From the IMG/VR virus record IMGVR_UViG_2850784384_000007: a DNA stretch of 59,292 nucleotides; one strand, given 5' to 3'. Position 1 is the first letter of the stretch; each line of letters starts with the position of its first letter. The stretch comes from a virus. Taxonomy: Duplodnaviria > Heunggongvirae > Uroviricota > Caudoviricetes. Shown here piece after piece: positions 30,599 through 31,022 of this stretch. The position numbers were made by a program, and so were the translations under genes. A model generated the notes under the pieces. The model was not told the DNA's origin and ran no database searches. It saw only the letters and a list, made by a program, of their open reading frames with translations.

Positions 30599-30673
30599 TG
30601 GAGCGGGCAGCGGGAATCGAACCCGCATCATCAGCTTGGAAGGCTGAGGTAATAGCCATTATACGATGCCCGC
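30599..30673 (-). tRNA. tRNA-Gly (anticodon UCC), phage-type
   Basis: 75-nt cloverleaf read from the minus strand: GCGGGCA acceptor, anticodon loop CTTCCAA, TTCGATT T-loop, CCA end. Confidence 0.65.
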
Positions 30674-30676
30674 ATA

Positions 30677-30752
30677 TGGTGCCGACTACCGGAATCGAAC
30701 TGGTGACCTACTGATTACAAGTCAGTTGCTCTGCCTGCTGAGCTAAGTCGGC
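30677..30752 (-). tRNA. tRNA-Thr (anticodon UGU)
   Basis: Acceptor GCCGACT/AGTCGGC, anticodon stem ACTGA/TCAGT with loop CTTGTAA, CCA end. Confidence 0.6.
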
Positions 30753-30754
30753 GC

Positions 30755-30831
30755 TGGCCCACCACCGAGGACTCGAACCTCGCACCGTCAACTTAGAAGG
30801 TTGATGCTCTATCCGGATGAGCTAGTGGTGG
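30755..30831 (-). tRNA. tRNA-Arg (anticodon UCU)
   Basis: Acceptor CCACCAC/GTGGTGG, D-stem GCTC/GAGC, anticodon stem TCAAC/GTTGA with loop CTTCTAA, CCA end. Confidence 0.65.
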
Positions 30832-30832
30832 T

Positions 30833-30909
30833 TGGTGGCCCTTGCTGGACTTGAACCAGCGACCTGGCGATTATGAGTCGCTCGCTCTGACCAACTGAGC
30901 TAAAGGGCC
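30833..30909 (-). tRNA. tRNA with CAU anticodon, ileX/ileZ-like (tRNA-Ile2 if lysidinylated, otherwise Met)
   Basis: GGCCCTTTAGCTCAG...GCGACTCATAATCGC...GGTTCAAGTCCAGCAAGGGCCACCA, near-identical to E. coli ileX as recalled. Confidence 0.65.
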
Positions 30910-30994
30910 GGAGGCAGAATAATAACCATATGTCATCACATCTGCAAACTCATCTGACCACCAGCGTGTTTAACGTCCTGTACCGTTTTTCAGG

Positions 30995-31022
30995 CATAAA
31001 AAACCCGCCCGGAGGCGGGTTT
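30995..31022 (-). terminator. intrinsic terminator, tR'-like (between Q and the tRNA/lysis block)
   Basis: Minus strand ACCCGCC-TCCG-GGCGGGT hairpin followed by TTTTTTA. Confidence 0.6.

Follow-up and report, generated by a model that had tools for sequence, protein, structure and literature searches.

Two blocks of four tRNA genes lie in a 59,292-nucleotide stretch of viral DNA (IMG/VR record IMGVR_UViG_2850784384_000007; hereafter the window), each between the gene of a phage late antiterminator, Q, and a lysis cassette. They raise the question of where a lambdoid phage obtained such tRNAs, when they are transcribed, and what they do for the cell that carries them. The reading favored here, at a probability of roughly 0.7, is that each block is a stable-RNA cargo operon in the phage late leader, with a promoter of its own, a boost from Q, and a role in extra decoding of rare codons. 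The window matches loci of Shigella flexneri SFBU1023 and strain ECMA0423 at 99.7 to 99.98% identity; the host chromosome is of the Shigella flexneri type, and the window holds two decayed lambda-like prophages, here called A and B. The block is present twice because these two prophages, both riddled with insertion sequences (ISs), lie side by side.

In the window, ARAGORN predicted eight tRNA genes and no more. All are encoded on the minus strand, and they form two blocks of four with the same gene order (Table 1); ARAGORN placed those of block B at 41422-41496, 41501-41574, 41577-41653, and 41655-41731. The Rfam family RF00005, with a gathering score of 29 bits, confirmed all eight at 51.5 to 70.5 bits (E-values, 4e-8 to 2e-13). 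An earlier note on this DNA, made from the letters alone, had named the four genes as Gly-UCC, Thr-UGU, Arg-UCU, and a tRNA with the anticodon CAU, and its coordinates and anticodons were correct. The same note had reported that the block recurs at 41422-41731 beside a second holin fragment and had concluded that two lambdoid late regions are present. Both statements hold, as the second block adjoins a stub of a PF04971 holin gene and the Q gene of prophage B (Q_B) belongs to a different family from that of prophage A (Q_A). Within a block, the genes are separated by spacers of 1, 2, and 3 nt, and all four encode the CCA end. When the two blocks were aligned, near-identity began at the terminator and spanned ~355 nt, with unrelated flanks outside; the interval that starts at ~30970/41792 (~30 nt past the terminator) and ends 2 nt beyond the Gly gene was free of differences except in the Thr gene of copy B.

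That gene is probably a pseudogene. The alignment places an A23-to-G substitution in its D stem and a 1-nt deletion (one G) in its 3' acceptor strand, which is down to six bases, whereas a seven-pair acceptor stem in register is intact in the other seven of the eight genes. Its Rfam score is 51.5 bits, compared with 69.8 bits for copy A, and its minimum-energy fold contains no cloverleaf. The deletion and its reading as decay had been put forward in the earlier note, and the D-stem substitution is one change more. Since S. flexneri SFBU1023 and ECMA0423 carry the same deletion, it is inherited and not a sequencing error, and copy B has lost its Thr gene through this frameshifting change in the acceptor stem. 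At a syntenic locus (L002) of enteroinvasive Escherichia coli (EIEC), an intact Thr gene stands at the copy B position.

The four tRNAs differ in their apparent origins. The Gly gene is 100% identical to K-12 glyT, and Thr copy A matches K-12 thrU at 74 of 76 positions (97%), with differences only at D-loop positions 16 and 20. Judged from their sequences, these two are near-copies of the host genes thrU and glyT and not relatives of argO, and their origin appears to be the host. The CAU gene received the label Met from ARAGORN because that label is based on the anticodon alone. It is identical at 74 of 77 positions to the ileZ gene of Shiga toxin (Stx) phages, at 69 of 77 (90%) to K-12 ileX, and at 54 of 78 to metT, where the Met-type reference is the elongator metT. 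Its acceptor stem (GGCCCTT...AAGGGCC) contains the pairs C4:G69 and C5:G68, whereas that of metT (GGCTACG...CGTAGCC) contains U4:A69 and A5:U68, and its anticodon stem-loop core, GCGACTCATAATCGC, is the same as that of ileX. C4:G69 and C5:G68 are the pairs by which E. coli TilS separates tRNA-Ile2 from tRNA-Met (PMC11947777). In EIEC genomes, the Prokaryotic Genome Annotation Pipeline (PGAP) annotates an identical CAU gene as tRNA-Ile. The CAU gene is accordingly predicted to encode tRNA-Ile2 of the ileX/ileZ type and not a tRNA-Met.

The Arg-UCU gene has four fully paired stems, the bases A20, C35, U36, and G73, and an unusual first pair, C1-G72. It is identical to argN (UCG) at 64 of 77 positions and to a UUU variant of argN at 65 of 77, compared with 58 of 79 for argU and 46 of 77 for argO, and it appears to be built on the argN scaffold of Stx phages and to be a relative of neither argU nor argO. 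The identity elements of E. coli ArgRS are A20, C35, and U36 or G36. The predicted tRNA would present them through its D loop, ATCCGGATA, which gives A20, and its anticodon, UCU, and its discriminator is G73, as in argU. Among 37 distinct members of the argN scaffold with three anticodons, 96.7% of the cells of the cloverleaf were paired and five pairs showed compensatory change; in the control, with the pairing partners slid, 29 to 54% were paired.

Elsewhere, the second slot of such blocks varies. The argN-type scaffold carries the anticodon UCG, UCU, or UUU depending on the phage (loci L009, L010, L135, and L138 and IMG/VR loci), and the UUU variants have C33 in place of the near-universal U33 while keeping the arginine identity element A20. 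A scaffold whose anticodon differs in this way by phage lineage would be a natural case of anticodon retargeting. In phage SerU-LTIIb (L141, 1122-1197), a thrU-bodied tRNA has the anticodon UCU and is annotated as Arg, and in phage JLK-2012 (L142, 1495-1570), the Thr gene is chimeric and joins a 5' half resembling that of phage 21 to a 3' half resembling thrU. By their composition, these two genes point to anticodon change and recombination within the slot. The tRNA genes as remnants of attachment sites were also considered and ruled out: they are full-length, they lie in a late leader far from any integrase, and they recur in free phage genomes.

Between the terminator and the first tRNA gene, a promoter scanner read the same element in both copies, TTTGCA-18-TATTAT or, equivalently, TTGCAG-17-TATTAT. 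Its conservation was assessed in 120 IMG/VR contigs with an ileZ-type tRNA, which gave 40 distinct upstream sequences. Information peaked at -38 to -35 (TTGC) and at -16 to -10 (TTATTAT), and the spacer and the region farther upstream varied. These contexts include one with an unrelated spacer (TTGATT-17-TATTAT), one in which the U tract of the terminator runs directly into the -35 box, and one in which the 3' end of a methylase gene stands where the terminator would be. In E. coli Sakai, prophage Sp5 has the same motif upstream of ileZ2, and differential RNA sequencing (dRNA-seq) by Sy et al. in that strain placed a primary start site, from which the homologous tRNAs are transcribed, at a point past tR'; motif and start site agree by described location, not by exact coordinate. 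Because of the motif conservation and the Sakai start site, the block is interpreted as a unit with a promoter of its own, to which transcription from pR' is added once Q acts. A putative sigma-70-like promoter (TTGCNN-17-TATTAT) probably lies between the terminator and the first tRNA, and the block would probably be expressed by itself in lysogens and boosted by Q on induction. An autonomous unit expressed in the lysogen, rather than a purely late function, changes the effect on host physiology that is to be predicted.

The order Q, strong terminator, four tRNAs, and holin on the minus strand, as given in the earlier note, is borne out for copy A by ARAGORN, by PHROG and Pfam matches, and by folding. 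A homolog of Q_A in EIEC CFSAN029787, 99.5% identical, is annotated by PGAP as "antiterminator Q family protein." The promoter pR' was placed by eye, since the Q-proximal region resembles that of Sakai Sp5 and the layout resembles that of phage 21; the predicted pR' had no match in the consensus promoter scan. The terminator of copy A reads AAACCCGCC-UCCG-GGCGGGUUU followed by more U residues (31022-30998), and its segment folds at -21.5 kcal/mol (z = -3.3). The call rests on folding, and the consensus terminator scanner missed the element, probably because an A-U extension of the stem uses up the U tract. By analogy with phage 21, the terminator would be expected to end the pR' transcript at ~48 nt. 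The description of the block as standing behind a tR'-like terminator is right in position, but a promoter probably intervenes between terminator and tRNAs, so that the block is not simply behind it. The late-region layout is present in copy B too, but there Q is of a different family and the terminator is much weaker: the hairpin folds at -14.4 kcal/mol (z = -2.2) and is marginal as a terminator compared with that of copy A. The IS boundary within Q_B was set by the inverted repeat I1, and an intact Q_B homolog is found in strain RMDEC465.

Codon usage was compared with a reference of 42 annotated K-12 genes (14,748 codons), and enrichment was ranked among the 61 codons. In the late and early gene sets of prophage A, AGG ranks 1, AGA 2 to 3, ATA 3 to 4, ACA 4 to 5, and GGA 7 to 9. 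In the ipaH gene at 1060-2823, AGG is enriched 13.2-fold, AGA 11.6-fold, ATA 3.8-fold, and ACA 2.7-fold, and GGA is not enriched. In 34 ipa-mxi-spa genes of an S. flexneri virulence plasmid, a set with 34% G+C, AGA (14.2-fold) ranks first, ATA (13.7-fold) second, AGG third, ACA (4.0-fold) fifth, and GGA (2.5-fold) twelfth; summed over four codons, the frequency is 88 per 1000 in these genes versus 15 per 1000 in the K-12 sample. The earlier note had proposed setting the supplied anticodons against the codon usage of ipaH and type III secretion genes, and the outcome is that the decoded codons, AUA, AGA/AGG, ACA, and GGA, are enriched 2- to 14-fold in the prophage, in ipaH, and in the type III secretion genes of the virulence plasmid (pINV), with the exception of GGA in ipaH. 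The codon pattern fits codon supplementation, with the reservations given below.

Taken together, each copy would function as a small operon of four minor tRNAs between the Q/pR'/tR' switch and the lysis cassette. In the lysogen, the tRNAs would be made from the putative sigma-70-type promoter that the operon carries a short way past tR'; after induction, polymerase that starts at pR' and is modified by Q would pass tR' and add to the tRNA output. RNase P would be expected to cleave the polycistronic precursor, with its spacers of 1 to 3 nt and encoded CCA ends, and 3' exonucleases to trim the products. Host TilS would convert the CAU anticodon of tRNA-Ile2 to lysidine, by which it would read AUA; tRNA-Arg (UCU) would read AGA and AGG, tRNA-Gly (UCC) would read GGA and GGG, and tRNA-Thr (UGU) would read ACA and, by wobble, other ACN codons. 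The net effect would be more decoding of codons that end in A and are seldom used by host core genes; the same codons are common in prophage genes, IS elements, ipaH, and the AT-rich type III secretion genes of the virulence plasmid. Expression in this strain, lysidine modification, aminoacylation, and a fitness benefit are steps that we infer.

Among the 120 IMG/VR contigs, the combination CAU-UCG-UCU (Stx type) occurs in 56, CAU alone in 35, CAU-UUU-UGU-UCC in 13, and CAU-UCU-UGU-UCC, the type of the window, in 6, with a few of other combinations. Among species representatives, Citrobacter braakii, S. flexneri SFBU1023, and ECMA0423 were the only ones with the phage-type Thr-Gly junction, and the latter two have four blocks each, one with the Thr deletion. 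A four-slot Ile-X-Thr-Gly block is present in 601 of 5,426 complete E. coli genomes, X being mostly Lys or uncalled in the genomes sampled. The exact Arg-UCU allele occurs in 10 of the 5,426, in 2 to 5 copies each, and these are exactly the ten ipaH-positive genomes; a variant with 96 to 97% identity occurs as a single copy in six other, ipaH-negative genomes, and the two that were inspected keep the four-gene order. In this E. coli collection, the AGA-reading allele tracks the invasive pathotype perfectly and matches the codon demand of the virulence plasmid, which makes the association a simple, testable link from prophage remnants to the translation of Shigella virulence genes.

Several points weigh against the cargo operon as set out above. 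The -35 hexamer of the window matches the consensus at 3 to 4 of 6 positions, and ~2 such sites are expected by chance in 1.6 kb; the sequences in which the promoter is conserved are related to each other and not independent; and in copy A, the interval from Gly to the intact holin contains no convincing terminator, which is awkward for constitutive transcription. AT-rich foreign DNA is in general enriched in rare codons that end in A, a pattern compatible with nearly any tRNA for a rare codon, and CGG is enriched 5.5-fold in the late genes, yet the block supplies no matching tRNA. Gly and Thr duplicate host tRNAs and therefore add only gene dosage. The ~355 nt of near-identity points to recent recombination or gene conversion, so that the identity is not evidence of long-term selection, and the ten ipaH genomes are not phylogenetically independent, the association being given without phylogenetic correction; a common pool of phages, or gene conversion within genomes, may account for it instead of selection. 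The doubts about the promoter favor what the earlier note had implied, a strictly Q-dependent late cargo without a promoter of its own that serves late translation in lytic growth alone: the block comes right after Q, pR', and a strong terminator, the -35 box is weak, the terminator of phage 21 abuts the first tRNA and leaves no room for a promoter, and a constitutive promoter in copy A would face an intact holin without a clear terminator between. However, the distance between TTGC-17-TATTAT and the tRNA is constant across 40 contexts, including those with the U tract running into the -35 box and with the methylase gene, the primary start in the Sakai dRNA-seq lies downstream of tR', and a strong terminator follows the block in copy B and in intact relatives, which makes strict dependence on Q distinctly unlikely. 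The doubts about selection would instead suit neutral passengers, that is, a functional recombination module hitchhiking between lambdoid prophages, which would owe its presence in Shigella and EIEC to the local phage pool and to gene conversion within the genome and would benefit neither phage nor host. Blocks of identical sequence stand between Q genes of unrelated families and downstream spacers that differ, copies A and B are nearly the same, the chimeric Thr gene of JLK-2012 attests to recombination in the slot, block types are many and interchangeable, and one Thr copy is decaying, with the decay inherited. Against this, only one of the eight genes is defective and the promoter is undamaged in each copy despite heavy IS damage that has reached Q and the holin flanking copy B, the anticodons are precisely those most undersupplied for the resident foreign genes, and all ten ipaH genomes have 2 to 5 copies, versus six single-copy variants in the 5,416 others; neutrality is rated unlikely.

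Selection could also have acted through something other than codon supply. If the tRNAs were counterdefense cargo, they would replace host tRNAs destroyed in lytic growth by tRNA-targeting nucleases such as P2 Old, which attacks tRNA-Thr (UGU), or PrrC, PARIS, or those of the colicin type, which attack other tRNAs. In phage 21, this slot is occupied by tRNA-Asn and tRNA-Thr (UGU). The Thr tRNA of that phage rescues cells exposed to P2-OLD, a nuclease with a preference for host tRNA-ThrU, whereas extra host tRNA-ThrU gives little or no protection and resistance maps to the anticodon arm (PMC12445682). Slot 2 switches among UCG, UCU, and UUU, the last being the target of PrrC and PARIS, which keeps the idea alive for the wider family of blocks. 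In the Thr tRNA of the window, however, the anticodon arm is still that of thrU (ACTGA/TCAGT) and includes the cleavage motif as paired CTG/CAG, whereas the stem of phage 21 differs; by the criterion of an altered CNG pseudo-palindrome or a shortened anticodon stem relative to thrU (PMC12445682), neither of which it has, a P2-OLD-resistant Thr tRNA was rejected. The Gly tRNA is identical to glyT and would hence be as nuclease sensitive as the host copy, and no nuclease against Ile2, Arg-UCU, or Gly-UCC was identified in this analysis. Because the defining feature of a resistant tRNA is absent and Gly is identical to the host gene, counterdefense is very improbable for this block. A narrower form of the codon-supply idea holds that the argN scaffold was retargeted to AGA/AGG in the Shigella/EIEC prophage pool and that 2 to 5 copies of the self-promoted block are kept, decayed prophages included, because they raise the translation of ipaH and of the pINV type III secretion genes with their extreme AGA and AUA content, in which case prophage remnants would help to adapt translation to the virulence plasmid. 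The occurrence of the exact allele in 10 of 10 ipaH genomes versus 0 of 5,416 others, the top ranks of AGA and AUA among enriched codons of the ipa-mxi-spa genes, and the intact promoter in both copies are consistent with it, and it is doubtful as a whole. The self-promoted, Q-boosted cargo operon for rare-codon decoding remains the preferred reading.

Table 1. Positions of the tRNA genes and of the late-region features around them in the window
Feature	Position	Strand	Basis or remark
tRNA-Gly (UCC), copy A	30599..30673	-	ARAGORN; Rfam 64.9 bits
tRNA-Thr (UGU), thrU-like, copy A	30677..30752	-	ARAGORN; Rfam 69.8 bits
Putative tRNA-Arg (UCU), argN scaffold, copy A	30755..30831	-	ARAGORN; Rfam 56.4 bits
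Predicted tRNA-Ile2 (CAU), ileZ/ileX type, copy A	30833..30909	-	ARAGORN; Rfam 70.5 bits
Promoter-like element, copy A (TTGCAG, 17-nt spacer, TATTAT)	30919..30947	-	Scanner; ends 9 nt before tRNA
tR'-like intrinsic terminator, prophage A	30998..31022	-	Nine-pair stem (6 G-C), 4-nt loop, U tract
Predicted pR', prophage A (TTTACG, 16-nt spacer, TATTCT)	31053..31080	-	By eye; start near 31046
Q antiterminator, prophage A (82/21-type)	31109..31489	-	phrog_79 4.6e-54; PF06530 5.8e-54
Structured noncoding spacer after Gly A, two long hairpins (11- and 13-pair)	30455..30598	-	Folding
Holin, class II (P21 S-type), prophage A	30091..30306	-	PF04971 5.5e-35; PHROG holin families
Endolysin and Rz spanin, prophage A	28395..29392	-	PHROG endolysin 1.3e-62, Rz-like spanin 1.8e-75
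tRNA-Gly (UCC), copy B	41422..41496	-	Identical to copy A and glyT
tRNA-Thr (UGU), copy B, probable pseudogene	41499..41574	-	Alignment, Rfam 51.5 bits
Putative tRNA-Arg (UCU), copy B	41577..41653	-	Same sequence as copy A
Predicted tRNA-Ile2 (CAU), copy B	41655..41731	-	Same sequence as copy A
Promoter-like element, copy B	41741..41769	-	Scanner; sequence identical to copy A
Weaker terminator-like hairpin, prophage B	41820..41849	-	4 G-C pairs and U8 run
Q_B C-terminal part (DUF1133 type), IS-cut at 42356	41921..42355	-	PF06576 4.1e-78; phrog_753
Strong intrinsic terminator between block B and holin stub	40783..40809	-	Ten-pair stem, then UUUUUUCUUU
5' fragment of P21 S-type holin gene, IS-cut at 40651	40652..40741	-	PF04971 profile positions 1-26 only

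The regions downstream of the two blocks differ in length and in how they might end a tRNA transcript. The 144-nt spacer of copy A (30455-30598) folds at -48.2 kcal/mol (z = -4.06) and is ~95% conserved in three coliphages, and it matches phi467 at 98% over the part matched by that record; no Rfam family was found for it at an E-value of ≤1. Its role might be to end transcription, to serve in processing, or to act as a small RNA (sRNA), with Pas-like RNAs as candidates. Pas sRNAs have been reported beside prophage holin genes, and the likeness of the window spacers to them is by location only. In copy A, the long hairpins between Gly and the holin have a poor U tract, a further hairpin there has a U7 run but a stem of only three pairs, and the P21-type lysis cassette that follows is intact. 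Relatives of copy B have, like copy B itself, a strong terminator after the block, and at the syntenic loci L002 and L003 the holin is intact, versus the stub in block B. The 680-nt spacer between block B and the holin stub contains a near-perfect, very long hairpin at 41222-41305 (minus strand), whose 126-nt segment folds at -50.8 kcal/mol (z = -5.7) and has no Rfam family. This spacer is treated as noncoding because its open reading frames (ORFs), 41162-41377 and 40984-41241, have no PHROG match and are unannotated in relatives; they were rejected as genes. Permissive Rfam searches of both intergenic regions returned nothing credible beyond the tRNAs, with neither AgvB nor AsxR at an E-value of ≤1; hits to microRNA models were spurious and merely reflect the long hairpin, and hits to plastid-ycf2 were the tRNAs read on the opposite strand.

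Prophage A is lambdoid and runs on the minus strand, starting with a DnaB-like helicase and ninH, followed by Q (PF06530) and the tRNAs and then by the P21 S-type holin, a 209-amino-acid (aa) ORF, the endolysin, Rz, an IS cluster, terminase-to-tail genes, and ipaH (1060-2823). Prophage B is more degraded, and its Q, of the other family, and its holin stub are each cut by an IS. IS3-family and other ISs are dense and present in many copies (24561-28015, 38107-40651, 42356-43613, 48932-50205, 52006-54928, and 55459-56683); they cut Q_B, the block B holin, and other phage genes, and both tRNA operons and their promoters were spared. An ALIL frameshifting pseudoknot lies among them at 25983-26099. 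A QueH epoxyqueuosine reductase homolog, a tRNA-modification enzyme (43711-44397, minus strand; PF02677, 1.9e-65), is located in prophage B just upstream of the interrupted Q_B and the tRNA block. The NinB gene (37157-37567, minus strand) is transcriptionally upstream of the prophage A replication genes, not in its usual nin-region place, which points to a rearrangement or to a site where prophage fragments meet. An isrK Hfq-binding RNA adjoining a C4 antisense RNA occurs in two copies of opposite orientation (36051-36239, minus strand, and 50759-50947, plus strand; Rfam, 58 to 76 bits), each beside an Ash/Rha-type regulator ORF (35943-36773 and 50600-51556). From this arrangement, a P1/P7-like immunity module may be present on a third prophage fragment or on an inverted segment. 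The window is bracketed by two ipaH genes in inverted orientation (1060-2823, plus strand, and 57482-59292, minus strand), which form an inverted repeat with 97% complementarity. The left gene is intact and encodes 587 aa; the right gene is probably a pseudogene, because it is split into separate NEL and LRR ORFs.

That phages carry clusters of tRNA genes after Q has been known from the first genomes of Stx phages onward. The earlier note had compared the window with the ileZ-argN-argO cluster of Stx phages, and the comparison is apt, since the slot is the same in Sakai Sp5 and phage 2851 and the first two tRNAs are homologous to ileZ and argN. As in the window, the slot of the Stx phages (933W, Sakai Sp5 and Sp15, and 2851) lies downstream of Q/pR'/tR', with the same promoter motif upstream of the first tRNA. 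In contrast, slot 2 is UCG (reading CGA) in the Stx phages and UCU (AGA) in the window, argO in the former is replaced by the thrU-like and glyT-like genes in the latter, and the block is followed by stx there and by a holin here. Phage 21 shares with the window the slot, a PF06530 Q, a PF04971 holin (the S21 pinholin), and a terminated pR' transcript of ~48 nt; however, its Thr tRNA has a diverged anticodon stem and is OLD resistant, whereas that of the window is thrU-like, and its terminator abuts the first tRNA with no internal promoter, whereas the window has a promoter-like element at that place. Another relative is a sister block of Ile2, "Lys"-UUU, Thr, and Gly (PhiR47_1, vB_EcoS-689R5, and many chromosomes), which has the same slots, spacers, promoter, Thr, and Gly and is ~93 to 95% identical; its slot 2 has UUU with C33, compared with UCU with U33 in the window, and it accounts for most of the 601 genomes.

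The host genes ileX/ileY, argU, thrU, and glyT of K-12 have the same anticodons, and the Ile2 genes have the same TilS identity pairs as the window, but they are at scattered loci in operon contexts of their own, and argU is unlike the Arg gene of the window (58 of 79 positions). The helper plasmids pRARE and CodonPlus and the eight-tRNA cluster of phage T4 supply tRNAs for Ile-AUA, Arg-AGA/AGG, and Gly-GGA, with Thr-UGU also supplied by pRARE and T4, and these rare-codon plasmids and the T4 cluster help to translate AT-rich genes in E. coli. The plasmids are artificial and T4 is a virulent phage, and the T-even Thr and Gly tRNAs are only ~82% identical to those of the window. The exact block is already annotated in RefSeq EIEC genomes, and the sister block, with UUU or without a call in slot 2, is present in several deposited phages. 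The block is a known kind of lambdoid late-leader tRNA cargo whose composition differs from the textbook ileZ-argN-argO and is less described; what is added here is the assignment of the CAU gene to Ile2, the host origin of Thr and Gly, the argN-scaffold Arg, the putative internal promoter, the match to virulence-gene codons, and the co-occurrence with ipaH.

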